Counted from the first letter of the stretch, positions 13,472-39,068 are shown. The stretch is DNA of 40,047 nucleotides from Anaeromyxobacteraceae bacterium (GCA_035655915.1 DASRTO010000580.1:1-40047), one strand, 5' to 3'. Made by a program: numbers and translations. Notes: generated from the sequence alone by a model not told the origin.

Positions 13472-13492
13472 CCGGGGAAGCCCGGCGGCGCA

Positions 13493-15958: not shown

Positions 15959-15972
15959 GCTCCTCGAGCCGC

Positions 15973-18517: not shown

Positions 18518-18553
18518 GGCCCGGTGCAGCGTTCCACCAGCGAAGGAGGGGTC

Positions 18554-18997
18554 ATGGACGACATCCGGATACTGCTCGTCGACGACGAGGAGGAGTTCGT
18601 GCAGGCGCTGTCCGAGCGGCTCGGTCTCCGGGACCTCTCGAGCCAGACCGCCTTCGACGGCGAGGAGGCCTTGAGGTTCGTGGACGCCAACGCCCCCCAC
18701 ATCATGGTGCTCGACCTCAAGATGCCCGGGACCAGCGGCCTGGACGTGCTCCGCCTGGTGAAGAAGCAGCACCCCGCCCTCCAGGTCATCGTCCTCACCG
18801 GCCACGGCAACGACCTCGACGAGGCCGAGGCCCGGTCGATCGGGATCTTCGACTACCTGCGCAAGCCGGTCGACATCGAGGTCCTGGTGGGTCGCATCCG
18901 CGCCGCCTACCAGGAAGGCCGGAAGGGCACCTCCCTCACCGCTGCGGCCTTCGCCGAGGCCGGCGAGCTCGACACCGCCAGGCGCATCCTCGAATGA
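18554..18997 (+). CDS. Response-regulator receiver protein with a C-terminal AAAFAEAGE module
   Basis: ATG 18554 follows GAAGGAGGGG. The REC domain is canonical (ILLVDDEEE, VLDLKMPGTSG, VIVLTGHG, DYLRKPV). The tail LTAAAFAEAGELDTARRILE is encoded at 18935-18994. Confidence 0.85.
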   Translation: MDDIRILLVDDEEEFVQALSERLGLRDLSSQTAFDGEEALRFVDANAPHIMVLDLKMPGTSGLDVLRLVKKQHPALQVIVLTGHGNDLDEAEARSIGIFDYLRKPVDIEVLVGRIRAAYQEGRKGTSLTAAAFAEAGELDTARRILE

Positions 18998-19043
18998 GGA
19001 CCGCCGGACGCCAGGGGAGCGGCCCCGCCGGGCCGGGTCGCCC

Positions 19044-22788: not shown

Positions 22789-22876
22789 CGGCGGCGCGGC
22801 CTTGGCCCGGGCCCCGCCAGGGCCGCGGCCGGTTTCCCAACGCGACGGGATCCTGGGAGAATTCCCGCCAGCGCCG

Positions 22877-25432: not shown

Positions 25433-25810
25433 ATGGAACGGGCGCTTCGCATCCTCCTGGTGGACGACGAGGAGGACTTCCTGGAGCCGACCTCGAAGCG
25501 GCTGCGGCGGCGCGGCTTCGAGGTGAAGACCGCCAGGCGCTGCCAGGAGGCCATGTCCGAGGTGGCAGCCGGCTGGCCCGAGGTGGTGGTCCTCGACGTG
25601 ATGCTCCCGGACACCGACGGCCTGGAGTGCCTGCGGCGGATCAGGCGAGCCTCGCCCCTTCTGCCGGTGGTCATCCTCAGCGCCCACGCCTCCATGCAGG
25701 CCGGGGTCCAGGGAATCGAGCTGGGCGCCAGCGACTACTGCCTGAAGCCCATCGAGCTCGACGAGCTCGTCGAGAAGATCCAGATCGCGCTCAAGGAGGC
25801 GGGGCGCTGA
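25433..25810 (+). CDS. Stand-alone response-regulator receiver protein
   Basis: 125 aa with canonical receiver residues: ILLVDDEED, VVLDVMLPDTDG, VVILSAHAS and DYCLKPI. It starts 4 nt after the upstream stop. Confidence 0.9.
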   Translation: MERALRILLVDDEEDFLEPTSKRLRRRGFEVKTARRCQEAMSEVAAGWPEVVVLDVMLPDTDGLECLRRIRRASPLLPVVILSAHASMQAGVQGIELGASDYCLKPIELDELVEKIQIALKEAGR

Positions 25811-25861: not shown

Positions 25862-26842
25862 TCAGTTCCACACCTCGAATCCCTTGAGGAGCGCCCTCAG
25901 GGAGGCGAAGAGGAGGAGGGCGATCACCATGCTGCGGATGGCTGCCGGCCTGGTCCGGGCCAGGATGCGGACCCCGGTGATCGACCCCAGCATGATGCCG
26001 ATGATGGACGGCACCACCAGGATGGGGAGGACCGCCCCGTTGTTCACGTAGATCCAGGCCGCCGAGGTGTCGGTGATGGAGAGGAGGAACTTGCTGGTGG
26101 CCACCGACACCTTGAGCGGCACCCCCATGAGCAGGTTCAGCACCGGGACGTTGGCCCATCCGGCGCCCAGGCCGAACATCCCGGCCATGACGCCGATGAC
26201 CACGAAGGCGGCCAGCCCCTGGGGCGTGCGGTGGATCTTCCAGTCGACGTCCCGGCCGGTCGAGGCCTCGTGGTAGATGCCGCTGATGCGCAGCGCGGTG
26301 GAGAGGCGGTCGGCCCGCGGCACGTCCGGGTACTCGGACTTCTTGGCCGTGAACATGATGGCGACGATGCCGAGGATGGTGAACCCGAGCGCGATCTGCA
26401 CCACCTTGGTCGGCAGGGCCAGCCCCACCATGGCCCCCACGATGGCGCAGGCGGAGGCGATGAGCGCCACCGGGATGGCGAGCCTGAGATCCGCCAGCCC
26501 CTTGCGCAGCAGGCCGGGGCCGGCGGCCAGCGCCCCGGCCAGCGCCACCAGCAGGCCGGCACCCCTGACGAAGTCGAGGTGGAACGGGAAGAACCCGCCG
26601 ATGATGGGGACGAAGAGGACGCCGCCGCCCACCCCGCCCAGCACCGCCACGATCCCCAGGAGGAACGTCACCACCAGGAGGATGGCCGGCCAGGCCCACC
26701 AGGGCATGGCCGAGCCGTGGGCCATCCCGGCCGCGGCCGGCACGGCGGACGGGTCGGCCCAAGCCAGGGCGATGGCCGCCGGCAGCCAGGGGGCGGACGC
26801 CGCCAGAACCAGCGCCACGGCGATCGTCGCGCGTCGGGTCAT
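25862..26842 (-). CDS. TauE/SafE-family anion permease (third copy)
   Basis: 326 aa with the signatures GIVAVLGGVGGGVLFVPIIGG and GVMAGMFGLGAGWANVPVLN. Confidence 0.85.
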   Translation of the reverse strand: MTRRATIAVALVLAASAPWLPAAIALAWADPSAVPAAAGMAHGSAMPWWAWPAILLVVTFLLGIVAVLGGVGGGVLFVPIIGGFFPFHLDFVRGAGLLVALAGALAAGPGLLRKGLADLRLAIPVALIASACAIVGAMVGLALPTKVVQIALGFTILGIVAIMFTAKKSEYPDVPRADRLSTALRISGIYHEASTGRDVDWKIHRTPQGLAAFVVIGVMAGMFGLGAGWANVPVLNLLMGVPLKVSVATSKFLLSITDTSAAWIYVNNGAVLPILVVPSIIGIMLGSITGVRILARTRPAAIRSMVIALLLFASLRALLKGFEVWN

Positions 26843-26854: not shown

Positions 26855-27331
26855 TCAGTGACCGCCGACGGACAGGACCCCGGACGCGGCCAGCCCCAGC
26901 ACCAGCACCTCGGCCACCGTGAGCCAGGCGTAGACCCGGTCGCTCTTCCGGAAGAAGATGGGGCTGATGGCCAGGTAGCAGGCGACGGTCACGCCGGAGA
27001 GGAAGGCGATGCCGACGAAGTTGAGGAAGTCGCCGCGGTGGAGCATGAAGACCCAGTTCCAGCCCGGCTCGATCCCGGTGGCGGCCAGGTACTGCTTGAC
27101 GGGAAGGGACCAGTACCGGGGGAGCTCGCCGAGCGGCACGTGAGGCCTGACCAGGCCCAGCAGGTAGGCCGCGGCGGAGAGGAGGAGCAGCAGGAGCCCG
27201 GTCCTCATCCCGCTGTCGAGCCACCGCGCGTAGGCGAGCTGCTCCTCCGCCAGCCCCTCCCCGGCGGCGGCGATCGCCGCCGGGGGGACGGCGGCGACGA
27301 CGGCGCGCCCGGTCACCTCGATCTGGCTCAC
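26855..27331 (-). CDS. Small polytopic membrane protein upstream of TauE (possibly DUF1634-like)
   Basis: 158 aa with three or four hydrophobic segments, ending 12 nt from the TauE start. The family assignment is a weak recollection that DUF1634 proteins pair with TauE. Confidence 0.6.
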   Translation of the reverse strand: MSQIEVTGRAVVAAVPPAAIAAAGEGLAEEQLAYARWLDSGMRTGLLLLLLSAAAYLLGLVRPHVPLGELPRYWSLPVKQYLAATGIEPGWNWVFMLHRGDFLNFVGIAFLSGVTVACYLAISPIFFRKSDRVYAWLTVAEVLVLGLAASGVLSVGGH

Positions 27332-27932: not shown

Positions 27933-29405
27933 GTGAACATGGACGCAGCCCAGGCGACCCTCGCCGTCCCGAAGGAGCGCTTCGGTACCCACGAGCGCTG
28001 GGCGTTGGCGGTGACGGGGTTCTTCATCGTCGTCAGCGCCTCCGTCTATGCCGCCAACGAGCTCTACGTGTATCTGGTGGCGTATCTCTGGTTCGGGTTC
28101 ATCTATGGGATGTGCCTGCAGGGGGGCAGGTTCTGCTTCTCCTCGGCGTTCCGGGACCTCTTCGCCGTCGGCGTGCCCAGGATGGTCGTTGGGATCGTGA
28201 TCGCGTGCGTCCTCTTCGGGGTCACCTCCGCCTTCGTCACCGCGACCGGCATGAGCGCCTTCCACCCGGCGACCTGGGGCATCCACAACGTCATCGCCGG
28301 CGCCGTCTTTGGCGTGGGGATGGTCGTCGCCGGCGGTTGCGCCTCGAGCTCTCTCTACAAGACCGGAGAGGGCAACATGGCGTCGGCGCTGGTCATCCTC
28401 TCCATCAGCGTGACGCAGGCCGTCTTCGTGGCCATACGCGGGTGGAGCAACAAGCTCGTCCCGCAATCCTGGCACCAGGCGGCGGTGGCAAGAGGATTGC
28501 CCGACGCCATCAACGCCGGCGACGGCTGGATGGACCAGTACCTCGCGGGCTACGTGTGGAACCAGCCCAAGGGCACGTATGCGGACTTGCTCGGCGCCCC
28601 CAACGAGTCCTTCCTCGGGGCCTTCGTCGGCAACTTCCTGCTGGGCGTGGTCGTCCCCGCGGCGCTGCTGCTCGGCCTCGTCTACCTGTTCTGGGTCAGG
28701 AAAGGCTTCCTGAAGAAGTGGAAGCGCGATGGGAAGCCGGGGGGCTTGCGGGCCGACCTGGCCGGCTTCTGGGGGATGGTGGCGTCGTCGAAGAGGACCG
28801 CCGTCGCCGGCCTGATCCTGGGAATCGCCGCCGGCCTGCACATGTACGTCATGATGGGGATCCGGCAGAAGTTCGGAATCGAGAATGCCGCGCAGATCCT
28901 CAGGGCCATCGGGCAGGATTTCGGCATCTCGGTCAAGAACACGGTGTTCGACCCCGGCTACTGGTACGTGACCACCCAGGAGGCGCAGTGGGTGGGCTGG
29001 GTGTTCCAGAAGCTGGGCTGGAACAACATGGACAACATCTTCTTCGGGCTCAACAACGGCATCCCCAATCCGCTGTGGAACCCGGCGGACTGGATGTCGG
29101 TGGCCCTGATCGGCGGGGCCTGCGTCATGGCTCTCGTCCACAACGAGTTCAAGTTCAAGGTTCCCTCCCTCGAGGTCGCGACGTGGGCGATCATCGGTGG
29201 CTTCTTCATGGGGGTGGGCTCGCGGCTCGGGCTGGGCTGCAACGTGGGGGCGTTCTTCGTACGCACCGCCAACGGGGACTTCTCGGGATGGCTGTTCGGG
29301 CTCGGGATGGTAGGAGGCGCTTACCTGGGCGTGAAGTTCTTCAGTTGGTGGACGGAGCGGAAGATGGCGAAGGAGATGGCGGCGGCGCCCGATCTCCAAC
29401 TCTAG
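27933..29405 (+). CDS. YeeE/YedE-family sulfur (thiosulfate)/selenium-compound transporter
   Basis: 490 aa and polytopic. It has the three family-typical Cys-loop motifs GGRFCFSSAFRDLF, AGGCASSSLYKTGEGN and LGLGCNVGAFF. Confidence 0.85.
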   Translation: MNMDAAQATLAVPKERFGTHERWALAVTGFFIVVSASVYAANELYVYLVAYLWFGFIYGMCLQGGRFCFSSAFRDLFAVGVPRMVVGIVIACVLFGVTSAFVTATGMSAFHPATWGIHNVIAGAVFGVGMVVAGGCASSSLYKTGEGNMASALVILSISVTQAVFVAIRGWSNKLVPQSWHQAAVARGLPDAINAGDGWMDQYLAGYVWNQPKGTYADLLGAPNESFLGAFVGNFLLGVVVPAALLLGLVYLFWVRKGFLKKWKRDGKPGGLRADLAGFWGMVASSKRTAVAGLILGIAAGLHMYVMMGIRQKFGIENAAQILRAIGQDFGISVKNTVFDPGYWYVTTQEAQWVGWVFQKLGWNNMDNIFFGLNNGIPNPLWNPADWMSVALIGGACVMALVHNEFKFKVPSLEVATWAIIGGFFMGVGSRLGLGCNVGAFFVRTANGDFSGWLFGLGMVGGAYLGVKFFSWWTERKMAKEMAAAPDLQL

Positions 29406-29422
29406 AGGCAGGAGGATCAACC

Positions 29423-29674
29423 GTGGCGATGAAGTTCGAGAAGATCGGCGAAGGCGCCTATTCCCTGGACGTGAAGGGCTACGTTTGTCCGCATCCGCAG
29501 CTCTACACCAAGAGCGCCCTGTCGAAGATAAGGCCCGGCGACACGCTGCGGCTGCTCTTCGACAACCCCTCCTCCGGGGAGTCCATCGCCTCGATGTGCG
29601 ACAAGAACGGCGACGAGATCCTTGAGCAGATCACCGACGCCGGATCGTTCCGGTGGCTCATCAAGAAGTCCTGA
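29423..29674 (+). CDS. TusA/YedF/YeeD-like sulfurtransferase (SirA fold)
   Basis: A GTG at 29423 lies 6 nt after AGGAGGA (alternative ATG at 29429). It has the CPxP active-site motif in LDVKGYVCPHPQL and sits immediately downstream of yeeE-like, as in yeeE-yeeD pairs. Confidence 0.85.
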   Translation: MAMKFEKIGEGAYSLDVKGYVCPHPQLYTKSALSKIRPGDTLRLLFDNPSSGESIASMCDKNGDEILEQITDAGSFRWLIKKS

Positions 29675-29711
29675 GCGCCCCGGGCGCCGTGGCGAGGAGG
29701 ACCGGGCCGTC

Positions 29712-30068
29712 ATGAAGACCAGCCTTTGGATCGTCGTGGTGATGATAGCGGGGTTCGTCGGGTTCCTGATCGGCTACAGCGTTTCGTCGCACACCGGGAC
29801 GCGCGGCCTCGAGACCATTGTGGCCACTTCGCAGAAGCCGGCCGCGCCCGCCGCCGCGCCGGCGGGGGGCTACGCCGAGAAGCCCACCGCCCCCACGAGC
29901 GGCTACGGCGAGAAGCCGGCCGCGCCGACCCCGGCGGCCACGCCTCAGTCGAAGCCGTCGGCCCAGGCGTCCTCGGCCGGCGCGACGCCCGAGAAACCCG
30001 CCCCACCGAAGCAGGCCGCCCCGCGCGCGGCCCCCAGCAAGGCCGGCAGCTCCACGGCCGGATACTAG
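29712..30068 (+). CDS. Membrane-anchored Pro/Ala-rich low-complexity protein with a tandem GY(A/G)EKPxAP repeat
   Basis: ATG 29712 follows GAGGAGGA. It has an N-terminal TM (LWIVVVMIAGFVGFLIGY) and a 33-nt tandem repeat at 29868-29933. The protein ends in ..STAGY. Confidence 0.6.
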   Translation: MKTSLWIVVVMIAGFVGFLIGYSVSSHTGTRGLETIVATSQKPAAPAAAPAGGYAEKPTAPTSGYGEKPAAPTPAATPQSKPSAQASSAGATPEKPAPPKQAAPRAAPSKAGSSTAGY

Positions 30069-30150
30069 TGTCGCTACCCATGCGGCGGCTCTAAAGACGC
30101 GCCGCCAGCGGGCGAGTCCGGCTCGTTGCCGCGTTGCGCCGAGGAGGCGA

Positions 30151-31092
30151 ATGCCCATGAGACCAAGACTCGCAGTGCTGCTCCTCCTGGCCGCTCCGCT
30201 CGCCGCAGCCCAGGCGCCGGCGGCCAAGAAGGCCAAGACCATCGACCAGCTGGCGGCCATGTTCGACTCCGCCAGGTGCAAGCAGTGCCACGGGGAAATC
30301 TACGCGCAGTGGGAGAAGTCGCACCACGCCCGCCCCTTCATGGGCGTGGCCGGGGGGCTGATGCTCATCCCGGTGGTGCGCTCCAGCGCCTTCCAGGTGA
30401 AGAGCCCCAAGGAGGCGACCCTCAAGACCTTCCCCTGCTTCAAGTGCCACCTCCCCCAGGCGGTCACCCACGCCGAGGACTCGGTGGCGGTGGAGCTGGC
30501 CGAGGCCCTCTTCACCGCCTCGGACAAGGACAAGCCTGACAAGGACAAGGCGGCCGCCAAGGCCAAGGTGGCCAGGCTTCAGATCACCTGCATCGTCTGC
30601 CACAACGAGAAGGCCATCGCCCACAAGCTGGTCCTCGGTCCGCCGCAGGCCGACGTCATCTACGGCTCCCGCGACCTCTCGCCCCACGGGGACCCCCCGG
30701 ACCGCGTCTTCAAGTCGGTGAAGAAGAGCGCCATCCTCAACCAGCCCGTCTTCTGCGGGCAGTGCCACGGGACCGGCCCGAACTTCGAGTTCGACTACCC
30801 CATCCAGTGCGCCACCCTCTACGGGAGCTACCAGCACAACTACCTCTCGAAGGGCGGCTTCCAGACCTGCCAGGAGTGCCACATGCGCAAGGTGGGCAAG
30901 GTGGCCGACCACACCTTCCCGCCGAACTGGGACGACAAGGAGTCCACCTCGAAGATGCTGGCGGACAACATCTCGCTGGACGTCCAGACCCTGGGCTACC
31001 AGTGGCTGCGCAAGGCTGGGGCCCTCACCCCCATGATCGTGGTGAACACCAAGATCGGGAACCGGGCCGGCCACCGCATCCCGGATGGCTGA
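30151..31092 (+). CDS. Secreted multihaem c-type cytochrome (5 CXXCH), reading frame interrupted by TGA at 31090-31092
   Basis: The signal peptide is MPMRPRLAVLLLLAAPLAAAQA. The five haem motifs are CKQCH, CFKCH, CIVCH, CGQCH and CQECH. The frame ends ..NRAGHRIPDG-TGA and stays open in the same frame to 31413. The start could be 30151 or 30157. Confidence 0.85.
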   Translation: MPMRPRLAVLLLLAAPLAAAQAPAAKKAKTIDQLAAMFDSARCKQCHGEIYAQWEKSHHARPFMGVAGGLMLIPVVRSSAFQVKSPKEATLKTFPCFKCHLPQAVTHAEDSVAVELAEALFTASDKDKPDKDKAAAKAKVARLQITCIVCHNEKAIAHKLVLGPPQADVIYGSRDLSPHGDPPDRVFKSVKKSAILNQPVFCGQCHGTGPNFEFDYPIQCATLYGSYQHNYLSKGGFQTCQECHMRKVGKVADHTFPPNWDDKESTSKMLADNISLDVQTLGYQWLRKAGALTPMIVVNTKIGNRAGHRIPDG

Positions 31093-31107
31093 CCGTCCCA
31101 CAACCGA

Positions 31108-31127
31108 GCGGTCCTGGAAGTGACCGC
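31108..31127 (+). other. Hairpin GCGGTC-CUGGAAGU-GACCGC located 15 nt after the in-frame TGA (SECIS-like candidate)
   Basis: A perfect 6-bp stem with an 8-nt loop containing GG, read directly in the sequence. The spacing from UGA to the loop falls within the range generally described for bacterial SECIS elements. Confidence 0.35.
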
Positions 31128-31413
31128 CAAGAGCGCCGAGGGCAAGGATCTCTTCAGGGACGAGCGCCACTACCACCCGCAGGCCACCAGCTGCCTCAAC
31201 GAGAAGATGGTCTACGGCGCCCAGAACAAGTCGTCCTACGTCCGCGACACCAGCCTGCAGCCCTTCGAGTCGAAGGACGAGACCTTCGAGATCAAGCTGC
31301 CGGAAGGGGTGCGCGCCGCCGATGTCACCGTGGAGCTGGTCTACGAGGTGCACAATCCCGAGAACAGGGTTCCCATCCACAAGGTCACTCGGCGCGTCTC
31401 GCTGGACCGCTAG
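31120..31413 (+). CDS. Same-frame continuation of the cytochrome (C-terminal beta-rich domain); either a read-through/Sec extension or a separate ORF from GTG 31120
   Basis: It is in frame with 30151..31092. The sequence ..PSHNRAVLEVTAKSAEGKDLF..ETFEIKLPEGVRAADVTVELVYEV.. looks like the domain that normally follows the GHxxPxG motif in this cytochrome family. That identification is from recollection and has not been searched. Confidence 0.55.
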   Translation: MTAKSAEGKDLFRDERHYHPQATSCLNEKMVYGAQNKSSYVRDTSLQPFESKDETFEIKLPEGVRAADVTVELVYEVHNPENRVPIHKVTRRVSLDR

Positions 31414-31418
31414 GGCGA

Positions 31419-32882
31419 ATGAGGTGCGCGCTGGTCATCCCGTCGTGGGCCCCGGAGGACCTCTTCCCCGCGAAGACGGCCGGGTCCCAGCTCAACTACT
31501 GGCAACCCCTGGGCACGCTCTACGTGGCCGCCAGCCTCCAGCGGGCCGGCCACGAGGTCCGCTTCCTCGACGGCGCCTTCCTGTCACGCCAAGCGATCCT
31601 GGACCAGCTCTCCGCCTTCCGGCCGGAGTGGGTCGGCATCTACGCCACGGCCTTCGGCTGGCCGCGCGCCGAGCGCACCGCCGCCGACGTCACCGAGCGC
31701 CTCCCGGAGTCCTACCTGTGCGCCGGAGGCCCCTACCCCATCGCCGAGGGCGAGCGGTGTCTCGACTACGCCCGCGCCTTCGACGCCGCCGTCACCGGCG
31801 AGGGAGAGCAGACGGCGGTGGAGATGGTGGAGCGGCTCGAGCGCCGCGAGTCGCTGGAGGGCGTCTCCGGACTGGTCTACCGGCAGGGGGACGAGGTGAA
31901 GGCGAATCCGCCCCGCCCCCTGCTGCGGAACCTGGACCAGCTCCCCTTCCCCGACCGGCGCCTGCTGGGCGACCCCGACCGCTACCTGCCGCCCCCGGCC
32001 ACCTGGCGCCGCAAGCCGGTGGCGGTGGTGCTGACCTCCCGCGGGTGCAACCGCCACTGCATCTTCTGCTTCCAGATGGACAAGAGCCGCCGCAGCGGCA
32101 TCCGCTACCGCAGCGTGGAGAACGTGCTCGAGGAGATCGAGCTGTGCCTGCGGCAGGGGTTCCGCGAGATCAAGTTCATCGACGACACCTTCGCCGAGGA
32201 CCGCGCCCGCGCCATGCGCCTGGCCGGCGAGATCCGGCGGCGGCGGCTCGACTTCACCTGGTTCGCGTCCGCCTGCGCCAACCAGGTTGACCCGGAGATG
32301 CTGCGCGCCTTCAAGGAGGCGGGGTGCTGGGCCATCCTCTTCGGCGTCGAGAGCGGCGTGCAGCGGAACCTCAACACGCTGCGCAAGGGGATCACCCTGG
32401 ACCAGGCGAGGCGGGCGGTGGCCTGGGCGCGGGAGGCGGGACTCTCGGTGCAGACCACCTTCATGTTCGGGATCCCGGGCGAGACCTTCGAGGACGGGCT
32501 GCGGACGATCGACTTCGCCTGCGAGCTCGACGCCGACTGGGCCAGCTTCCACGCCATCGTCCCCTTTCCGGGTACGGTGCTCCACGATCGCGCCGCCGGG
32601 CTCGGCACCCTCTCCGAGGACCTGCAGGACTTCACCTACCAGGGAGCGGCCTTCGTCCCCTCCACCATGACCCGGGACCAGATCGTCGAGCTCAGGCAGC
32701 GCGCCTACCGCGCCTTCTACAGCCGGCCCAGGTTCCTGCTCCGCAAGCTCGCCGGGCTGGGGAACCGGCACCACCGCGCCGCGGCGCTGCGGAGCGCCCG
32801 CTCCTTCTTCTGGCTCTGGGCCGGGAAGGACGTCTTCCGCCCCGCTTCCGCCGGCCACCGGCCGGACCCGAGGGAGGGCTGA
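31419..32882 (+). CDS. B12-binding-domain radical SAM enzyme (class B rSAM)
   Basis: The N-terminal Rossmann-like B12 region reads MRCALVIPSW..YVAASLQRAGHEVRFLDG... The radical SAM cluster motif is CNRHCIFC, followed by ..FGVESG.. and a TIM-barrel-like remainder. Confidence 0.85.
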   Translation: MRCALVIPSWAPEDLFPAKTAGSQLNYWQPLGTLYVAASLQRAGHEVRFLDGAFLSRQAILDQLSAFRPEWVGIYATAFGWPRAERTAADVTERLPESYLCAGGPYPIAEGERCLDYARAFDAAVTGEGEQTAVEMVERLERRESLEGVSGLVYRQGDEVKANPPRPLLRNLDQLPFPDRRLLGDPDRYLPPPATWRRKPVAVVLTSRGCNRHCIFCFQMDKSRRSGIRYRSVENVLEEIELCLRQGFREIKFIDDTFAEDRARAMRLAGEIRRRRLDFTWFASACANQVDPEMLRAFKEAGCWAILFGVESGVQRNLNTLRKGITLDQARRAVAWAREAGLSVQTTFMFGIPGETFEDGLRTIDFACELDADWASFHAIVPFPGTVLHDRAAGLGTLSEDLQDFTYQGAAFVPSTMTRDQIVELRQRAYRAFYSRPRFLLRKLAGLGNRHHRAAALRSARSFFWLWAGKDVFRPASAGHRPDPREG

Positions 32883-32887
32883 AGGCC

Positions 32888-33967
32888 GTGACCGGTGCCG
32901 CGGCGCGGATCGAGCGGGCCGTCCCGCCCCCGGGCTCGCCCCCGGAGCGGTTCATCTCGGTGGTGGTGCCCAACCGCAACGGGGCGGCCACCATCGGACG
33001 GTGTCTCGAGGCCGCCCTGGCCTCGGACTACCGGCGCTTCGAGGTGGTGGTGGTGGACGACGGCTCCGAGGACGCCTCGGTGGAGATCATCCGCGGCTTC
33101 CCCTGCCGCCTGGTCCGCCTGCCGCGGCGCGCCGGCGTCTCGCGGGCGCGCAACGCCGGGGCCCGGGCGGCCTCGGGGGACCTGCTCCTCTTCATCGACT
33201 CCGACTGCCTGGTGCGGCGCGACACCCTGGCGGTGGCCAACGCCTCCTACGGCGAGCGCCGCGACCGCGTCCTGGGTGGCACCTACACGCCGATCCCGCA
33301 CGACCGCGACTTCTTCAGCGCCTTCCAGTCGGCCTTCATCCACCACTTCGAGACCAAGCGGCGCGAACCCGACTACGTGGCGGCCCACGCCATGGTCATC
33401 GACGCCGTGCTGTTCCGGCGCTCGGGCGGATTCGTCGAGGACTCCTTCATCGGGGTGGCCGCCAGCGTGGAGGACGTCGAGTTCAGCCACCGCCTGCGCC
33501 GCCAGGGCTGCCGGCTGGCCATGGACCCGCATCTCCGGGTGACGCACGTCTTCCGCTTCTCGCTGCGCCGGTCGCTCTCGAACGCCGTCAGGAAGGCCCG
33601 CACCTGGACCCGGTACTCCCTCGCCAACCGCGACCTCCTCCGGGACTCGGGCGCCGCCTCGCTGGAGCTCAAGGCCAACGTGCTGTGCGCCCTGCTGGCG
33701 GCCGGCCTGGCCGTCGCCGGCCTGGCCCGGGGAGCCGCCTGGCCGCTCGCGGCCCTCCCGCCCCTCCTGGCCCTCGACCTCCTCGTGAACCGGCGGCTGG
33801 TCGCCGCCTGGCTCGGGGCCGGCGGCCCGGGCTTCGCGGCCCTGGCGGTCCTCTACTACCTGACCCTCTACGCGGCGGCGGTGGCGGTCGGGGCGGCCCT
33901 GGGCACCGCGCAGTACCTGTGGAGCATCCGCCTGCTGGGGCGATACCGGCCATGCACACCCCGCTAG
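32888..33967 (+). CDS. Family 2 glycosyltransferase with a C-terminal membrane region
   Basis: The start is GTG. The GT-A signatures are ISVVVPNRNGAATI, VVVVDDGSED and FIDSDC (DxD). The C-terminus has three or four TM segments. Confidence 0.8.
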   Translation: MTGAAARIERAVPPPGSPPERFISVVVPNRNGAATIGRCLEAALASDYRRFEVVVVDDGSEDASVEIIRGFPCRLVRLPRRAGVSRARNAGARAASGDLLLFIDSDCLVRRDTLAVANASYGERRDRVLGGTYTPIPHDRDFFSAFQSAFIHHFETKRREPDYVAAHAMVIDAVLFRRSGGFVEDSFIGVAASVEDVEFSHRLRRQGCRLAMDPHLRVTHVFRFSLRRSLSNAVRKARTWTRYSLANRDLLRDSGAASLELKANVLCALLAAGLAVAGLARGAAWPLAALPPLLALDLLVNRRLVAAWLGAGGPGFAALAVLYYLTLYAAAVAVGAALGTAQYLWSIRLLGRYRPCTPR

Positions 33968-35082
33968 CGCACGCGCGGTCCCTCTTCTGGAAGAGGCGAC
34001 CCGTCCACCTGACCCTCTTCGTCACCGGGAGCTGCAACCTCCGCTGCCCGTTCTGCTTCCACCGGCGGGCCCCGGAGGCGCCGGACCCCGCCCCCGAGCT
34101 CTCCCTGGACGAGATCGGCCGGGTGGCCCGGTCGATGGACTCCCTGCTGTGGCTCCTGTTCTCGGGTGGCGAGCCGTTCCTGCGCCGCGACCTGGTCGAG
34201 GTGAGCGCCCTCTTCCACCAGGTGAACCGGCCGGCCTTCCTCACCTACCCGACCAACGGCTGGTTTCCGGAGGTGATCGCCGATCGGACCGAGGAGATCC
34301 TGAGGAGCTGCCCGGAGAGCGTGGTGGTGGTGAAGGTCTCCCTGGACGGCGTGGGCGCCGACCACGACGCGCTGCGGCGAGCCCCGGGCGGCTTCGAGCG
34401 GGTGGTGCGCACCCTGGAGCGGCTGGCCTCGCTGGCCGGGCGTCACCGGCGGCTCGAGGTCGGGGTGAACACCCTCTTCTGCCGGGAGAACCAGGAGCGC
34501 ATGGAGGCCATCGTCGACTTCGTGGCCGGGCTCGACGGGGTGCGGTCCCACACGCTCACCGTGGCCCGCCCGGTCCCGGGCGTCGCCACCGCCGCGGGCG
34601 TCGACCCCGCGCTCTACCGGAGGGCTGGCCTGCACCTCGAGGCCCGCTGGCGCGCCCGCCGGCACGGCTCCCACCGCTTCGCCGGGGCGGGCCTCAAGTC
34701 GGCGCAGGATCGGCTGCAGCGGCGGCTCGTCCACCGCACGCTGCTGGAGCGGCGGAGGGTCGTCCCCTGCTACGCCGGGCGCCTCGACCTGGTGCTCTCC
34801 GAGAGCGGGGACCTCTACCCGTGCGAGGGGCGCTGGGACGCCTCCTTCGGCAACGTGCGCCAGGCCGGCTACGACGTGCCGGGGATGCTCCGCTCCGCCC
34901 GGGCCCGGCGCGTCTTCGAGGCGCTGGAGAACGGGGAATGCCACTGCACCAACGAGTGCAACTTCCTCGTGAACATCCTCTTCAACCCCCGGATGCACCC
35001 CGGGCTCCTGCGCCACTGCGCGGGGCTGCCCCCGGCGTGGCCCGGGAGGGACGAGGCCCCGCGCCAGGCCGGCGCCGGCTGA
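33952..35082 (+). CDS. Radical SAM enzyme with a SPASM/twitch-like Cys-rich C-terminal domain
   Basis: ATG 33952 overlaps the GT2 end by 16 nt. The cluster motif is CNLRCPFC, followed by SGGEPFLR. The C-terminal cysteines lie in ..VVPCYAGRLDLVLSESGDLYPCE..GECHCTNEC... Confidence 0.8.
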   Translation: MHTPLAHARSLFWKRRPVHLTLFVTGSCNLRCPFCFHRRAPEAPDPAPELSLDEIGRVARSMDSLLWLLFSGGEPFLRRDLVEVSALFHQVNRPAFLTYPTNGWFPEVIADRTEEILRSCPESVVVVKVSLDGVGADHDALRRAPGGFERVVRTLERLASLAGRHRRLEVGVNTLFCRENQERMEAIVDFVAGLDGVRSHTLTVARPVPGVATAAGVDPALYRRAGLHLEARWRARRHGSHRFAGAGLKSAQDRLQRRLVHRTLLERRRVVPCYAGRLDLVLSESGDLYPCEGRWDASFGNVRQAGYDVPGMLRSARARRVFEALENGECHCTNECNFLVNILFNPRMHPGLLRHCAGLPPAWPGRDEAPRQAGAG

Positions 35083-35125
35083 AGGTGGACCAGGTGAACG
35101 TCGATCGAGCCAGGAGGTGGATCCG

Positions 35126-35440
35126 ATGAGCGATACGCTGGGAATCTGCGTGGCGACCAGGAACTCGATGCAGCACGTGGTCGGCCTGGCCAAGGCGGCC
35201 AGGGCCGCGGGCAAGGAGGTCAAGGTCTTCTTCACCGGAGAGGGGGTACACGCCACCCAGGACCCTCGCTTCGCCGAGCTGCTCGAGCTGGGGGTGGGCA
35301 AGGTGGCGGTGTGCGAGGTCAGCTACATCGCCAACGGGTTCAAGGGGAAGCCGCTGCCCGGGATGCGCGACAAGGACTTCGTCACCCAGGGGCGAAACGC
35401 CGAGATGGTCGAGGACTGCGGGCGCTACGTCGTCCTCTAG
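35126..35440 (+). CDS. DsrE/TusD-like sulfur-relay protein
   Basis: 104 aa, with AGGAGG 8 nt upstream. It shows the DsrE-family pattern (..LGICVATRNS..VKVFFTGEGV..) and a Cys in VAVCEVS (CxxS) at the expected active-site position. Confidence 0.7.
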   Translation: MSDTLGICVATRNSMQHVVGLAKAARAAGKEVKVFFTGEGVHATQDPRFAELLELGVGKVAVCEVSYIANGFKGKPLPGMRDKDFVTQGRNAEMVEDCGRYVVL

Positions 35441-35453
35441 GAGGGAACACGTC

Positions 35454-35747
35454 ATGGGCACCGGCAAGAGAGTGGCCGTCCTCATCAAGGACAAGGAGCG
35501 ACAGTACGAGGGGCTCCGCTCCAGCCTCGGCCTGCTCCTGGAGAAGCACGTCATCAGCATGTTCGTGCTGAACCACGAGATCGACATGACCGAGGAGTAC
35601 TCGGACAACATGGGTTTCATCGACGAGATGGGGGGCGCCCGCTACAGCAACGTCCCGGCCAACGTCGAGAAGTACGGGTTCAAGGCGGTGACGCTGGACG
35701 ATCTCCCCGCCAGGCTCAAAGAGAGCGAGCTCGTGATCGCCTACTGA
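35454..35747 (+). CDS. DsrF/TusC-like (Cys-less DsrE-family) protein
   Basis: 97 aa. It begins ..KRVAVLIKDKERQYEGLRSSLGLLLEKHVISMFVL.. and lies 13 nt after the previous gene. Confidence 0.6.
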   Translation: MGTGKRVAVLIKDKERQYEGLRSSLGLLLEKHVISMFVLNHEIDMTEEYSDNMGFIDEMGGARYSNVPANVEKYGFKAVTLDDLPARLKESELVIAY

Positions 35748-35770
35748 CCGCTTCGGGAAACGAGGACCAC

Positions 35771-35944
35771 ATGAAGATCCTTCACATCGTCCGCTCCGAG
35801 CCCGACGACCTCACGCGGCGCCTCGTCAAGGGACTCTCCCAGGGCGAGAGCAGCACCGAGGTCCCCCTCTACAAGGGCCCGGTGGATTACGCCAAGCTCG
35901 TCGCCAGCATCTTCGAGGCCGACCGGGTCATCTGCTGGTGGTAG
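35771..35944 (+). CDS. Small protein (57 aa), possibly a truncated DsrH/TusB-like third subunit
   Basis: This ORF is not in the track because it is under 60 aa; I read it directly as MKILHIVRSEPDDLTRRLVKGLSQGESSTEVPLYKGPVDYAKLVASIFEADRVICWW. GAGGA lies upstream. Its N-terminus resembles DsrH starts. Confidence 0.5.
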   Translation: MKILHIVRSEPDDLTRRLVKGLSQGESSTEVPLYKGPVDYAKLVASIFEADRVICWW

Positions 35945-35989: not shown

Positions 35990-36106
35990 CCTCCCGGCGG
36001 GGGACGAGCCCCCGCCCTACGGACCCCGCGGAGCCCCGGAGCGGGGGGCGAGCCCCGGCCCTACAGACCCCGGAGCCTCGGGGCGGGGGACGATCCCCCC
36101 CTCCGA
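35990..36106. repeat. Three REP-like palindromic elements (one perfect, two degenerate) related to 34..117
   Basis: The perfect core GGCGGGGGACGAGCCCCCGCC at 35996-36016 is followed by CTAC, identical to 92-116. Degenerate copies lie near 36038-36064 and 36080-36106. The perfect copy abuts the TAG stop (36017-36019) of the minus-strand gene, and the degenerate copies lie inside that gene's 3' end. Confidence 0.65.
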
Positions 36107-37885
36107 CGCCGGAGTCCGGGCGCGGTAGACCGCGACCAGCGGCCGGTCGCGGAACACGCCGTCGTCGGCCGCGAACGTCCGCGCCGGGCGCAAGCCCCGC
36201 AGACGGTCCGTCACCTCCGGCGGCAGGGGCGCGTCCAGGTCGTAGGCCAGGAGCGCCACCGCCGCGTCGCCTCCGGCGTCCCCCTGGTACCAGTCCGGGT
36301 TCTGGTACTCCCAGGTGAAGCGCAACGGGGAGGTCCGCGCCCGCTCCCTCGCTTCGGCGGGCACTCCTGGGTAGGCGTAGCGAAGGGTCTTGCGCGTGTA
36401 GAGGTCGAGCACGGGGACCCACACCGCCGGGTTCACGTCCGCCTCCGGGCGCGGCAGCGTGACGACCAGGGCCTGCGCCTCGCCGATCGAGTCCAGGTAC
36501 GCGCCGGCCGCCTTGAGGTTCCCGGCGCTGGTCCCCCGCAGGAACGGGAGGTACCCGTAGAGCGCCACCGCGAGCGAGGTGGCCACCGCGCAGCCGGCGG
36601 CGAGGCGGCGCAGCTCCGGGCTCCGGATCCGCTGGAGCCCGTAGGCCGCCATGAGCGCCACCATGGGGAAGGCCGGGAGGAGGTAGCGGATGCGCTGCAC
36701 CCGCAGCAGGAGCAGGAGCGCCACCGGCCAGAGGACCACGGCGTATCTCGGGTCCCGCCTCTCGACGGCCACCCAGGCCGAGAGCAGCGCCGCGCCGGCG
36801 ACGAAGGGATGGATCTGGAAGAGGAAGGTCGAGGCGAGGCTCTCCCCCCAGCGCCGGAGCCCGGGGGCCTGGTAGGACAGCAGCAGGGCGAGCTGCTCCC
36901 GGTGGATGTCCAGGCGCGGCAGCGCGGCGGAGAGGACCAGGGTCGCCGAAAGCAGCGCCACCGCGAGGCCGGTCCGCAGCGGCCGGGGTCCGTCCCGTCG
37001 GACCACCCCGATCACCGGCAGCACGGTGAGGAGCAGCCAGGCGGAGTACTTGCTGAAGCAGGCCAGGGCCACCGCCAGCGACGCCAGGAGGATCCGCCCC
37101 GGGCCGCCCCGCCGGAAGGCCTCCTCGACCGCCACCACCGCCAGCAGGAGGAAGAACATGGTGGGGACGTCCACCAGCATGCTGGGCACCTGGGCGAGCA
37201 GGTAGGGCATGGCCAGCAGCAGGGCGCCGGCGGTGAACCCCACCTCCTCGTCCCACAGCGCCTTGCCGAGGCGACAGGTCAGGGCCACGGCGCCGCCGAA
37301 GAAGAGGGTGCCCAGCGCCTGCACCACCAGCCGCGACTCCCCGAGGAGCCTGAAGAAGAGGCCGTGCAGGAGCGGGACCAGCGGCAGGTCGGTCCAGGCC
37401 GGGACGGCCCGGCCCCAGTCCGCCAGGAAGGAGCCGAGGCCGTGCAATTCCAGATATTTGGCCTGGGCGAAGTAGCGGGACGCGTCCACGATGACCTCGG
37501 GCGCGCGCCAGAACGGGACCACCGCCCCGCACGCGGCGGCGAAGAGCAGCGCCGCGGGCCGCCGCGGCAGCGGGAGCCTCGCCAGGAAGACGGCCGCGGC
37601 GACGCCCGCCGCCGAGAGGGCGTAGAGCCGAAGCGGATCGGCCTCGGCGAAGACCCAGCGCCAGCTGGTGAGGCGGTTGTCGTCCCAGGCGCGAAGGACG
37701 TGGAGGGCGGCGACCACTCCCACGGCGGTCAGCGAAACCGCCAGCCGCTCCAACGCCCCGGCCGCGGCCGCGCCGGCAGGTGCCTCCACGCGCGCTGGGG
37801 CTTGCGCCTCGGGCCAGGGCTCCACGGGGTTGGACGGCGCCGGCCGAGGTCGGCCGCGCCGCCGCTCCTCGGGACACGATAGCAC
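36017..37885 (-). CDS. GT-C fold membrane glycosyltransferase (GT39 / ArnT / PMT_2-like)
   Basis: 622 aa with more than 10 TM segments. The pattern ..DASRYFAQAKYL..PLVPLLHGLFFRLLGES..ALGTLFFGGAVALTCRLG.. is typical of ArnT/PMT-like enzymes. The GTG start at 37885 is uncertain. The C-terminal ~30 aa are encoded by REP-like repeats. Confidence 0.75.
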   Translation of the reverse strand: MLSCPEERRRGRPRPAPSNPVEPWPEAQAPARVEAPAGAAAAGALERLAVSLTAVGVVAALHVLRAWDDNRLTSWRWVFAEADPLRLYALSAAGVAAAVFLARLPLPRRPAALLFAAACGAVVPFWRAPEVIVDASRYFAQAKYLELHGLGSFLADWGRAVPAWTDLPLVPLLHGLFFRLLGESRLVVQALGTLFFGGAVALTCRLGKALWDEEVGFTAGALLLAMPYLLAQVPSMLVDVPTMFFLLLAVVAVEEAFRRGGPGRILLASLAVALACFSKYSAWLLLTVLPVIGVVRRDGPRPLRTGLAVALLSATLVLSAALPRLDIHREQLALLLSYQAPGLRRWGESLASTFLFQIHPFVAGAALLSAWVAVERRDPRYAVVLWPVALLLLLRVQRIRYLLPAFPMVALMAAYGLQRIRSPELRRLAAGCAVATSLAVALYGYLPFLRGTSAGNLKAAGAYLDSIGEAQALVVTLPRPEADVNPAVWVPVLDLYTRKTLRYAYPGVPAEARERARTSPLRFTWEYQNPDWYQGDAGGDAAVALLAYDLDAPLPPEVTDRLRGLRPARTFAADDGVFRDRPLVAVYRARTPASEGGIVPRPEAPGSVGPGLAPRSGAPRGP

Positions 37886-37928: not shown

Positions 37929-39068
37929 CTACCGCGGGCCCTCCCCGAACGCCGGGCGCGCCGCCTCGATGAAGGCGCGGGCGTTCTGGCGGTGGGCCGC
38001 TTTGTGCGCCCGCAGCTCCCGCACCAGCTCGAGGCCGGTCCGGCCGCAGGGCGGGAGGTCGGCGTCGCTCGCGCCGAGCGGCAGGGTCCGCTCCCCCCAC
38101 CGGACCAGGTGGGCGCACAGGGAGAGCCCGGCCCCGAAGCTCGGCAGGAGCAGGTGGTCTCCCGGCCGGACCCGCCCCTCCTCCAGCGCCTCCACCAGCG
38201 CCACCGGTACGGTGGCCGCCGACATGTTGGCGTAGCGGTGCACGTTCACGAACACCTTGCCGGGGTCGATGCCGACGCGCCTGCCGACGGCGTCGATGAT
38301 GCGCCGGTTGGCCTGGTGCGGCACCATGAGGTCCACGTCGACGATGGAGAGGCCGCGCCGGGCGAGCGCCTGCCGGCAGGCCCGGGCCATGCCCACCACC
38401 GCCCGCCTGAAGATCTCCTGGCCGTCGAAGATCCAGCGGGTGTGGCCGTAGGGGACGCCCAGGTTGGCGTAGCGCGCGCCCGCCCCACGGATGTCCAGGG
38501 CGCCGCGCGCGTCGGCGTAGCAGCCGAGCTGCTCCGCGAGCAGCCCCTCCTCCCGCTCGCTGGCCTGCACCACCGCCGCGCCGCAGCCGTCGCCGAAGAG
38601 GACGGCCGTGTTGCGGTCCTCCCAGTCGACGAACGGGGAGGGCACCTCGGCCCCGACCACCAGCGCCGTCCGCACCACCCCGGTGCGGATGAGGGCGGTG
38701 GCCGTGGAGAGGCCGTAGAGGAAGCTGGTGCAGGCGGTGTTCACGTCCATGGAGGCGGCGTTGGCCGCGCCCAGGCGCGCCTGCACGCCGGAGGCGACGT
38801 TGGGGGCGAGCTCGTCGCCCAGGGTGCTGCCCACCACGACGAGGTCGAGCGACTCGGCGGTCAGGCCGGCGCAGGCCAGCGCCCGCGCCGCGGCCACGTA
38901 CGCCAGCTCTCCCAGGGGCACGTGCGAGATGCGCCGCTCCTTCATGCCGGTGCGGCTCACGATCCACTCGTCGTCGGTGTCGAGGAAGGTGGCCAGGTCG
39001 TCGTTGGTCAGCACCGCCGGAGGCAGGCACTTCCCCCAGCCGGTGATGGCGGCGTGCGGCATCGGCAT
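37929..39068 (-). CDS. 3-oxoacyl-ACP synthase III (FabH-like KAS III) with a ~50-aa C-terminal extension
   Basis: The start is taken at ATG 39068 (MPMPHAAITGWG..), overlapping the upstream stop as ATGA. The catalytic triad context is NTACTSFLYGL (Cys), VPHQANRRI (His) and HRYANMSAATVP (Asn). The longer 37929..39404 version was rejected. Confidence 0.85.
   Translation of the reverse strand: MPMPHAAITGWGKCLPPAVLTNDDLATFLDTDDEWIVSRTGMKERRISHVPLGELAYVAAARALACAGLTAESLDLVVVGSTLGDELAPNVASGVQARLGAANAASMDVNTACTSFLYGLSTATALIRTGVVRTALVVGAEVPSPFVDWEDRNTAVLFGDGCGAAVVQASEREEGLLAEQLGCYADARGALDIRGAGARYANLGVPYGHTRWIFDGQEIFRRAVVGMARACRQALARRGLSIVDVDLMVPHQANRRIIDAVGRRVGIDPGKVFVNVHRYANMSAATVPVALVEALEEGRVRPGDHLLLPSFGAGLSLCAHLVRWGERTLPLGASDADLPPCGRTGLELVRELRAHKAAHRQNARAFIEAARPAFGEGPR

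Follow-up and report, generated by a model that had tools for sequence, protein, structure and literature searches.

A sulfur-relay gene cluster with a predicted selenocysteine cytochrome and a conserved, uncharacterised radical SAM and glycosyltransferase gene set in an Anaeromyxobacteraceae bacterium

Two bacterial systems that have been described separately provide the frame for the gene cluster examined here. One is the YTD set (yeeE-tusA-dsrEFH type II), for which transfer of persulfide sulfur from TusA to DsrE (Cys67 in Electronema) and on to DsrC was shown in vitro, from an operon that has tusA beside yeeE (PMC13293266). The YTD proteins respond to thiosulfate or to disproportionation of elemental sulfur (S0), and the Myxococcota are among the phyla with DsrEFH type II. 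The role of the set is debated, between a marker of sulfur disproportionation and part of a reverse-Dsr route of sulfur oxidation. The other system is the MccSep/ExtKL cytochrome, a periplasmic polysulfide reductase of Geobacter that is required for S0 respiration and reduces selenite in vitro, the two reductase activities having been demonstrated for the Geobacter enzyme only (bioRxiv 10.1101/2025.11.18.688581). According to the same study the family occurs mainly in the Desulfobacterota and Nitrospirota, and the route of polysulfide into and out of the periplasm is unclear; neither 'Myxococcota' nor 'Anaeromyxobacter' appears in its main text. The Geobacter ext gene cluster influences both selenite and tellurite reduction. 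How cells take up insoluble elemental sulfur is itself an open question. Here we describe a cluster in which homologues of both systems stand together with genes for two radical S-adenosylmethionine (SAM) enzymes and a glycosyltransferase. It lies in a stretch of 40,047 nucleotides from an Anaeromyxobacteraceae bacterium (GCA_035655915.1 DASRTO010000580.1:1-40047), which is referred to below as the window and has a G+C content of ∼72%.

The cluster is a string of ten co-directional, tightly packed genes on the + strand, at 27933-35944. In order, they encode a YeeE-type channel, a TusA-like carrier, an anchored repeat protein, a cytochrome, a class B radical SAM enzyme, a GT2-family glycosyltransferase, a second radical SAM enzyme, and DsrE-, DsrF- and DsrH-like proteins. 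The intergenic gaps in the same order are 23 (between yeeE and tusA), 37, 82, 5 and 5 nt, a 16-nt overlap, and 34, 13 and 23 nt. A preliminary description of this region had listed these ten genes, and all of them are present with the coordinates, shared strand and tight spacing that it gave. Domains were called with the curated cut-offs of Pfam and NCBIfam, and transmembrane (TM) segments from hydropathy. As judged from the sequences, the relay cluster and the selenoenzyme would be known systems, and what is new would be a conserved, uncharacterised enzyme module joined to both. A sulfur relay, a selenocysteine (Sec) cytochrome and an uncharacterised set of radical SAM and glycosyltransferase genes, co-inherited in many sulfur-cycling anaerobes, point to an undescribed branch of sulfur metabolism.

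The evidence that carries this conclusion comes from comparison across genomes. A scan of a one-genome-per-species collection gave 358 stretches encoding a relative of the class B radical SAM enzyme, and the 80 most similar of these loci, mostly from metagenome-assembled genomes and many of them fragmentary, were taken for comparison. Most are from Nitrospirota (Thermodesulfovibrionia, Dissulfurispiraceae and Ca. Sulfobium), with others from Anaeromyxobacteraceae, Desulfarculaceae and Desulfobulbaceae. Partner genes were counted, by tblastn and clustering of open reading frames (ORFs), in the 39 loci whose flanks reach at least 8 kb upstream and at least 5 kb downstream, which represent Myxococcota, Desulfobacterota and Nitrospirota. 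A check set beforehand was the co-occurrence of homologous radical SAM loci with relay genes, and they nearly always do co-occur: YeeE is found in 38/39 loci, a TusA-like protein in 34/39 and any DsrE/F/H gene in 32/39. A flavoenzyme resembling UDP-galactopyranose mutase (UGM) is encoded directly upstream of the class B enzyme in 36/39. The further partners are a PMT_2-family glycosyltransferase (25/39), a GY-repeat protein (22/39), the SPASM-type radical SAM enzyme (20/39), GT2 (18/39), Usp (15/39), a rhodanese (9/39), a heptosyltransferase-like protein of lipopolysaccharide (LPS) synthesis (9/39) and MccSep (6/39). Since the arrangement recurs in dozens of species and in three phyla, it goes beyond chance.

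In the Myxococcota and Desulfarculaceae the gene order is collinear with that of the window. The typical order in Nitrospirota is dsrE-dsrH-PMT_2-yeeE-tusA-GY-usp-flavoenzyme-rSAM (rSAM being the class B radical SAM gene), then a convergent SPASM-GT2 pair, dsrF and sometimes MccSep. There the dsrF-like gene is detached from dsrE/dsrH and adjoins GT2, and PMT_2 sits between dsrE/dsrH and yeeE. Across these lineages, the DsrEFH genes bracket the radical SAM and glycosyltransferase genes in two unrelated gene orders. In four loci (L045, L055, L056 and L068) the flavoenzyme and radical SAM genes form a stand-alone four-gene unit with those of a short YeeE and of a TusA-like protein of 76 aa that has Cys-Cys at its C-terminus; the small ORFs were checked in L056 and L068, and the L056 unit is flanked by housekeeping genes. 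Such a unit looks like an operon of importer, carrier and enzymes. In the open-access and bioRxiv literature we found no description of YTD or DsrEFH type II with radical SAM or glycosyltransferase genes, and no report of MccSep beside YeeE/TusA. Radical SAM enzymes are unmentioned in the YTD and DsrEFH type II papers that we checked, and glycosyltransferases are unmentioned in part of these papers and in PMC12998232. A separate observation is that an LpqE/PCuAC-like gene (PF04314) lies within 6-9 kb of the cluster in L003 (10718-11146), L002 (20518-20958) and 7 more loci; NosL and MacB-type ABC genes stand with it in L003, and it is possibly a copper-handling neighbour.

The relay proteins of the window are recognisable one by one. 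YeeE matches PF04143 with 120 bits and has at least eight TM segments; it stays under the cut-off for both the selenium-YedE and the thiosulfate-TsuA NCBIfam models, and its C68, C136 and C436 are invariant among 39 homologues. The TusA-like carrier matches PF01206 with 59.6 bits, its YedF and TusA NCBIfam matches both being under cut-off. Its motif is VCPHP, and Cys20 within it, where the persulfide presumably forms, is kept in 97% of 39 homologues. DsrE matches PF02635 with 26.2 bits and has an active-site-type Cys66 in VCEVS (Cys63 counted from the ATG) that is invariant in 24/24 homologues. A Desulfobulbaceae locus, L078, has an operon in the order tusA-dsrE-dsrF-dsrH. The window DsrE is 38% identical to the L078 DsrE by alignment (37% by tblastn), and the 97-aa and 57-aa proteins of the window are 29% and 45% identical to the L078 DsrF and DsrH, respectively. 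The 97-aa family is present in 33 loci and the 57-aa family in 44, the latter always near a dsrE-like gene.

Neither of the two small proteins has a Pfam or NCBIfam match, profile searches of the two families against PDB sequences gave noise only, and hhalign of the small proteins against the DsrE family gave probabilities of 13-15% (15% for the 97-aa protein). An AlphaFold2 (AF2) model of the 97-aa protein, with a mean confidence score (pLDDT) of 86, returned only a generic Rossmann-like fold in Foldseek, with no significant PDB match; the single-sequence AF2 model of the 57-aa protein (pLDDT 56) was too poor for use. Because our own fold tests failed to confirm them, the labels 'DsrF-like' and 'DsrH-like' depend on the apparent homology to the published YTD/DsrEFH type II set. 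Homologue searches with DsrE and the 97-aa protein gave close relatives only, at least 66% identical among the 120 listed, the cable-bacteria proteins being out of reach. On the available comparisons YeeE, TusA, DsrE and the two small proteins would match the published set. Membership of the tRNA-thiolation TusBCD system was considered and rejected, and no further dsr genes occur within the 40-kb window. Where YeeE is short (353 aa), the carrier is a 75-76-aa protein without the CPxP Cys (L001 8037-8267, L024 8294-8524, L056 8313-8543, L068 8318-8545 and others). One of three copies tested gave a sub-threshold TusA-like match, and the conserved Cys-Cys or C-x-C at the C-terminus (PCCV, ICCG, SCGCA) recalls the C-terminal arm of DsrC.

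The cytochrome gene had been described as encoding five haem sites and as ending at 31092. The five CxxCH motifs are there (CKQCH, CFKCH, CIVCH, CGQCH and CQECH), behind a hydrophobic N-terminus that closes with AAAQA, a signal peptide. The gene end had to be moved, since the stop is a TGA (31090-31092) that is read through, and the same frame runs on to 31413 with a G+C content at third codon positions (GC3) of 0.92 past the TGA. The read-through product matches NF040886, 'multiheme c-type cytochrome (seleno)protein ExtKL', with 491 bits against a cut-off of 250, and this match spans residues 12-418 of 420 and thus crosses the TGA. Against MccSep in the PDB (9wt8/9wt9) the E-value is 7e-75; the TGA-encoded Sec314 aligns with MccSep residue 325 (in the U325A structure) within a D-G-U-P loop, and C220 aligns with the Geobacter C239, the Cys ligand of haem 2. 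The TGA is found at the Sec position in 10/10 homologues from related loci. It is followed by a hairpin resembling a selenocysteine insertion sequence (SECIS) at 31108-31127, with six pairs that form in each of the 10 homologues, one of them seen as C-G, U-A and U.G. This six-pair hairpin was found solely through the comparison of homologues; its covariation did not exceed that of shuffle controls (with 10 homologues, in a region that is coding), and the fold of the 66 nt after the TGA is of ordinary stability (z = +1.4). The whole-protein match, the haem motifs with the signal peptide, and the Sec loop with the haem-2 Cys all fit, and the protein is a clear homologue of MccSep/ExtKL that is predicted to contain Sec.

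This identity does not sit with the suggestion that the cytochrome acts as an electron shuttle for the radical SAM enzymes, as it belongs with a periplasmic, polysulfide-reducing selenoenzyme and is present in just six of the 39 loci. In L034, L037, L039, L044 and L074 (∼14-21 kb), a TGA-bearing MccSep homologue lies 0.4-4.4 kb downstream of the detached dsrF-like gene. The Nitrospirota layout is a second, independent arrangement that ties MccSep to the cluster.

The class B radical SAM enzyme matches PF02310 (53.8 bits) and PF04055 (88.8 bits), with an invariant CX3CX2C triad of C210, C214 and C217. Outside the triad, C3, C114, C243, C286 and C303 are conserved in 97-100% of 80 homologues. 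To our knowledge five such additional Cys are unexpected in class B enzymes; they may ligate an auxiliary Fe-S cluster, or belong to a site for catalysis or for accepting persulfide. There are more than 2000 homologues at E < 1e-30, of which the 120 best are at least 64% identical. The best NCBIfam match is HpnJ, at 189 bits against a cut-off of 578, and equivalence to HpnJ was rejected, as it was for BchE (159 against 481), AprD4 (106 against 500) and ApyD (126 against 750). The closest PDB entry is the sugar diol-dehydratase AprD4 (E = 5.6e-26). Both HpnJ and AprD4 rearrange or deoxygenate a sugar by radical chemistry. The expectation that the two radical SAM enzymes fall outside the well-characterised families was borne out, neither reaching any curated family cut-off.

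GT2 matches PF00535 with 102 bits and ends in a membrane tail with TM segments at 259-277 and 304-322. Its gene overlaps that of the second radical SAM enzyme by 16 nt and is translationally coupled to it; across the loci GT2 is always paired with the SPASM-type enzyme in that order, both being present in 18/39. The best NCBIfam match of GT2 is MftF (107 bits against a cut-off of 280, near full length, E = 1e-30), and it is no nearer to DPM/ArnC-type enzymes than to other GT2s. The second radical SAM enzyme had been called a radical SAM/SPASM enzyme. The radical SAM core stands (PF04055, 59 bits, with C28/C32/C35 in a CX3CX2C motif), and a full SPASM domain is doubtful, that match reaching 16.7 bits against a cut-off of 21.5. 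The conserved Cys beyond the triad are C120, C273, C291, C330, C332 and C336. Only five of the conserved Cys are C-terminal and the SPASM motif has seven, which suggests that the C-terminus may be a twitch or partial SPASM domain. NCBIfam matches to AhbD, NirJ and MftC (50-59 bits) are far under their cut-offs, and PDB matches to SkfB, MoaA and BlsE are weak. An arsenosugar system was rejected on the GT2 match (76 bits against 182). The mycofactocin system was likewise rejected, with MftF at 107 against 280 bits, MftC at 52 against 265 and no other Mft genes in the window.

The gene convergent with the cluster, which had been described as GT39-like, does encode a real PMT_2 protein (PF13231, 32.7 bits, cut-off 26.1) and is a conserved partner of the cluster. 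It has at least eight TM segments and the conserved acidic residues E130, D134 and D166; a sequence search found no PDB relative. Both GT2 and PMT_2 are encoded in 13/39 loci; 12 have PMT_2 without GT2, and five have GT2 without PMT_2. No flippase was found for a two-step lipid-carrier glycosylation of the ArnC/ArnT or Ppm1/Pmt type. The minus strand also carries, upstream of PMT_2, a gene for a FabH-like ketoacyl-ACP (acyl carrier protein) synthase III, preceded by an overlapping ORF (37929-39404 -, 39068-39868 -); the FabH-like and PMT_2 pair is also present in the closest relative, L005.

The small protein encoded after tusA is Pro/Ala-rich and anchored, as first described, by one TM segment (residues 3-21). 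It does not stand by itself, being a degenerate member of a conserved GGYG-repeat family, with a Pro/Ala/Thr/Ser-rich tail of degenerate GGYG-type repeats that ends AGY. It has no Pfam or NCBIfam match. The family is found in 43/83 loci, directly 3' of tusA. A single TM helix, or a lipoprotein signal in variants, precedes the GGYG-type repeats, which number 1-15 (in Nitrospirota 3-15, of the form GGYG(A)P); 32/44 members end in GY, GYx or GYGx. Because some variants swap the TM helix for a lipoprotein signal, the repeat domain is taken to be periplasmic. The flavoenzyme (L003 5701-7053, L056 8577-10016 and 70 further loci) carries the NCBIfam name PRK07208 'hypothetical protein' and is similar along its whole length to UDP-galactopyranose mutases of the eukaryotic type (E ∼2e-21). 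It is absent from the window and from the nearest Anaeromyxobacter relatives (L002, L005, L010 and L011).

Table 1. Features of the gene cluster and its convergent neighbour, in window coordinates
Feature	Position	Strand	Basis
YeeE/YedE-family membrane channel, 490 aa, putative thiosulfate or sulfane sulfur importer	27933..29405	+	PF04143
TusA-like sulfur carrier, 81 aa	29429..29674	+	PF01206
Membrane-tethered repeat protein, predicted periplasmic, 118 aa	29712..30068	+	N-terminal TM helix, degenerate GGYG-type repeats
MccSep/ExtKL-type pentahaem c-type cytochrome, predicted selenoprotein, 420 aa	30151..31413	+	NF040886, PDB 9wt8/9wt9
SECIS-like hairpin GCGGUC-CUGGAAGU-GACCGC	31108..31127	+	Start 16 nt past UGA; homologue comparison
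Class B (B12-binding domain) radical SAM enzyme, 487 aa	31419..32882	+	PF02310 + PF04055
GT2 glycosyltransferase with C-terminal membrane tail, 359 aa	32888..33967	+	PF00535
Radical SAM enzyme with Cys-rich C-terminal (putative twitch / partial SPASM) domain, 376 aa	33952..35082	+	PF04055
DsrE-like sulfurtransferase subunit, 107 aa from GTG (104 aa from ATG 35126)	35117..35440	+	PF02635
97-aa conserved protein, DsrF position, 'CHP' of YTD cluster	35454..35747	+	Position and homologue family
57-aa conserved protein MKILHI...VICWW, DsrH position, 'CHP' of YTD cluster	35771..35944	+	Position and homologue family
PMT_2-family GT-C membrane glycosyltransferase, 622 aa, convergent with cluster	36017..37885	-	PF13231

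Starting from the observed gene identities and synteny, we propose that the region is one conserved functional unit for the uptake and processing of zero-valent (sulfane) sulfur, which feeds a radical SAM pathway; we put the probability of this at roughly 0.4. From the biochemistry of its homologue, MccSep would cleave polysulfide outside the cytoplasm. The literature on homologues suggests that the YeeE-type channel would then import polysulfide, sulfane sulfur or thiosulfate, and that the imported sulfur would be carried as a persulfide on Cys20 of TusA and handed on to Cys66 in a DsrEFH type II complex. Past DsrE we infer the steps, drawing all functional links from synteny: the co-inherited enzymes may use the relay sulfur as a substrate or co-substrate. 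The class B radical SAM enzyme and the UGM-like flavoenzyme would, in most genomes, produce a modified sugar or small molecule that probably bears sulfur. Sugar chemistry is supported by HpnJ and AprD4 being the nearest relatives, by the UGM-like flavoenzyme and by the TM-tailed GT2 with its GT-C enzyme. In the larger clusters, including the window, GT2, the coupled Cys-rich radical SAM enzyme and PMT_2 may move the product across the membrane onto an envelope acceptor, since a GT2, a coupled radical SAM enzyme, a GT-C enzyme and a periplasmic repeat protein together suggest a lipid-carried product that is attached outside the cytoplasm. The best candidate for the acceptor would be the periplasmic GGYG-repeat/Pro-Ala-Thr-Ser-rich protein encoded right after tusA. 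A more specific version, which we hold only tentatively, is that a chalcogen is inserted by a cobalamin-domain radical SAM enzyme of a new kind, which has an auxiliary site rich in Cys, and that GT2 and the GT-C enzyme mount the product on the GGYG protein or the envelope. If this were true, the product would be a chalcogen-containing glycoconjugate of a type not known before, on which anaerobes that respire, oxidise or disproportionate sulfur would depend for dealing with elemental sulfur, and what is still unexplained in the role of YTD would be accounted for in part.

Several points weigh against the sulfur-uptake proposal. DsrEFH type II is known from 985 genomes (PMC13293266), as against 358 stretches with a relative of the radical SAM enzyme; given this wider spread and the demonstrated DsrC acceptor, the relay has no need of the radical SAM module. 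About half of the loci lack GT2, the SPASM-type enzyme and PMT_2 within 10 kb, and no flavoenzyme is encoded in the window itself. HpnJ, BchE and AprD4, the nearest characterised relatives of the class B enzyme, all below their family cut-offs as matches, carry out sulfur-independent chemistry, as do all characterised relatives of the second radical SAM enzyme, and it is gene context that links the enzymes to sulfur. The structural test of the 97-aa protein (AF2 model and Foldseek) gave no DsrF fold. Scans for sigma-70 promoters and terminators gave background levels only. An alternative is a module that builds the envelope without sulfur, in which the radical SAM enzymes, GT2, the GT-C enzyme and, in other genomes, the UGM-like enzyme would make an ordinary glycoconjugate, for example by polyprenyl-phosphate-sugar O-glycosylation of the repeat protein. 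The glycoconjugate would help to bind or mobilise insoluble sulfur at the mouth of YeeE, and TusA-DsrEFH would serve dissimilatory or assimilatory acceptors only. Substrates of protein O-mannosyltransferases are rich in Pro, Ala, Thr and Ser, as is the periplasmic repeat protein of the window, and PMT_2 is embedded between dsrE/dsrH and yeeE in the Nitrospirota. In addition, a membrane-tailed GT2 with a GT-C enzyme is the classic two-step lipid-carrier layout, the characterised radical SAM relatives work on sugars without sulfur, and the LPS-heptosyltransferase-like genes are adjacent in nine of the 39 loci. However, the minimal YeeE-carrier-flavoenzyme-radical SAM units have neither a glycosyltransferase nor a repeat protein nearby, GT2 and PMT_2 are found together in just a third of the loci (13 of 39), no flippase was found for the lipid-carrier scheme, and the five additional conserved Cys of the radical SAM enzyme are left unaccounted for. 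We consider a sulfur-free module unlikely. Direct hand-over of sulfur to the radical SAM pathway is favoured by the coupling of the radical SAM gene to YeeE and TusA in nearly all loci, by the minimal units of importer, carrier and enzymes, and by the additional Cys; we regard it as about twice as credible as a purely envelope-building role.

It is also conceivable that the element transported is selenium, with YeeE/YedE and a YedF-like TusA carrying it, MccSep reducing selenite, and the radical SAM and glycosyltransferase enzymes making a selenosugar or supplying selenoprotein synthesis. The best NCBIfam matches of channel and carrier are indeed to the selenium-linked YedE/FdhT and YedF, MccSep is a selenoprotein that reduces selenite in vitro, the Geobacter ext cluster affects selenite and tellurite reduction, and the rhodanese of some loci partly matches ExtH. 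Yet the selenium and thiosulfate/TusA models score similarly, all of them under their cut-offs, the YTD proteins respond to thiosulfate or S0 disproportionation, DsrEFH type II moves sulfur, and the cluster is carried by classical sulfur-cycling taxa. Transporters of the sulfate and sulfite types abound in the window, which contains no selD, selA, selB or tRNA-Sec, and we judge the selenium version to be distinctly improbable. Slightly less probable again is peptide modification resembling mycofactocin or a ribosomally synthesised and post-translationally modified peptide (RiPP), in which the GGYG protein would be modified by both radical SAM enzymes and the MftF-like GT2 before its export, through Tyr cross-linking, decarboxylation or O-glycosylation, with possible thio-modification by the sulfur. 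Consistent with this, MftF is the best curated match of GT2, the second radical SAM enzyme weakly matches MftC and sactipeptide maturases, the class B enzyme matches ApyD at 126 bits, and the repeat proteins have many Tyr in a fixed GGYG context, with the GY, GYx or GYGx ends already noted in 32 of 44 members. All of these scores are far under the family cut-offs, however; no RiPP recognition element, peptidase or equivalent of MftB, MftD or MftE was seen, and the repeat protein is membrane- or lipid-anchored, exported, and absent from the minimal units. Finally, the radical SAM and glycosyltransferase genes might share no function with the YTD cluster and have been inserted into it by chance. 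The YTD genes are simply interrupted in the window, and MccSep and the flavoenzyme come and go between lineages, but an association that is kept in three phyla, at 60-87% protein identity and in differing gene orders, makes this very improbable. The probability that remains after these readings goes to something else.

Beyond the cluster, sulfur-anion-type transporters are spread across the window, at 113-1705 (-), 7231-9198 (-), 20777-22102 (+), 25862-26842 (-) and 26855-27331 (-). The set comprises a PF03601 (YeiH-like) membrane protein, a SulP/STAS permease and two TauE/SafE-family proteins. One of the TauE/SafE proteins, with a 158-aa partner that has three TM segments, is divergent from yeeE, and the pair of TauE and small protein also stands beside yeeE in the Anaeromyxobacter loci L002 and L010. 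Two large proteins have PPDK_N and PEP-utilizer mobile domains (2295-6803 (+) and 22802-25429 (+)), one of them also with Alph_Pro_TM; the second is followed, 3 nt on, by a single-domain response regulator at 25433-25810 (+). Regulatory genes are dense at 10479-17544 (-) and 18524-20774 (+), with two sigma-54 activators, three histidine kinases (two with dCache) and single-domain response regulators, and L002 likewise has a sigma-54 two-component pair next to the cluster. A search with the sigma-54 consensus gave fewer matches than chance and none upstream of yeeE, and tRNA and Rfam scans of the window gave no match.

The window unites a predicted polysulfide reductase, a candidate importer and relay, and a widely conserved gene set that includes two radical SAM enzymes, GT2, a GT-C enzyme and the GGYG protein, joined elsewhere by the UGM-like flavoenzyme. 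It thus extends MccSep and DsrEFH type II to the Anaeromyxobacteraceae, and if the host has no DsrC, the relay may have a different acceptor there. For the problem of sulfur uptake, the cluster yields concrete candidate genes, a candidate acceptor protein and possible new radical SAM sulfur chemistry.

The preliminary description knew of no such relay wired to two radical SAM enzymes and a glycosyltransferase. We found no published account of the radical SAM/glycosyltransferase association; for radical SAM genes as such, the statement overlooks the sHdr-LbpA clusters, in which TusA and DsrE3 are reportedly encoded with two radical SAM enzymes of lipoate assembly, lipoyl synthases of the LipS1/LipS2 type that act on LbpA. 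The likeness would lie in the grouping, in prokaryotes that metabolise sulfur, of genes of the TusA and DsrE families with two radical SAM genes. In contrast, the window cluster has no Hdr, LbpA or lipoate ligase genes, and membership was rejected; its radical SAM enzymes are of the class B and SPASM/twitch types and are accompanied by glycosyltransferases. Methylthioxylose capping of mycobacterial lipoarabinomannan employs a GT2-type polyprenyl-phosphate sugar synthase and a GT-C transferase, with sulfur from a methionine-derived methylthio group and without a radical SAM enzyme. As a parallel in layout rather than in compared sequences, a membrane GT2 and a GT-C enzyme there place a sulfur-containing furanose on an envelope glycan, whereas that system has neither a persulfide relay nor radical SAM enzymes.

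The HpnI/HpnJ step of hopanoid cyclitol-ether synthesis resembles the cluster in that a GT2 adjoins a B12-domain radical SAM enzyme, HpnJ being the best curated family. Unlike HpnJ and AprD4, the enzyme of the window has no hopanoid or aminoglycoside genes close by, and those systems are not known to have the additional conserved Cys or the sulfur-relay setting. With mycofactocin the cluster shares a membrane-tailed GT2 that has MftF as its best curated match, a putatively SPASM-type radical SAM enzyme and a Tyr-bearing small protein nearby, but MftA, MftB, MftD and MftE are absent and the candidate substrate is an exported, membrane-anchored repeat protein. The likeness to MccSep/ExtKL of Geobacter sulfurreducens (GSU2937-2936; PDB 9wt8) extends to the five CxxCH motifs, the signal peptide, the Sec in DG-U-P, the haem-2 Cys and a putative SECIS-like hairpin. 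Whereas the Geobacter gene lies within extHIJKLMNOPQS, with a rhodanese, a porin and more cytochromes, that of the window is inside a YeeE-TusA-DsrEFH cluster. The closest relative of the relay is YTD/DsrEFH type II (Umezawa et al. 2020, as cited in later papers; PMC13293266), with which it shares a three-Cys YeeE and a CPxP TusA as neighbours, a ∼100-aa DsrE with one invariant Cys at about 63-67, and two small proteins that follow in the same order, the trio amounting to ∼258 aa in the window against a reported heterotrimer of 33 kDa. It differs in its host, which here is Anaeromyxobacteraceae-like, and in being split, with tusA ending at 29674, dsrE starting at 35117 and five genes (5.4 kb) between them.

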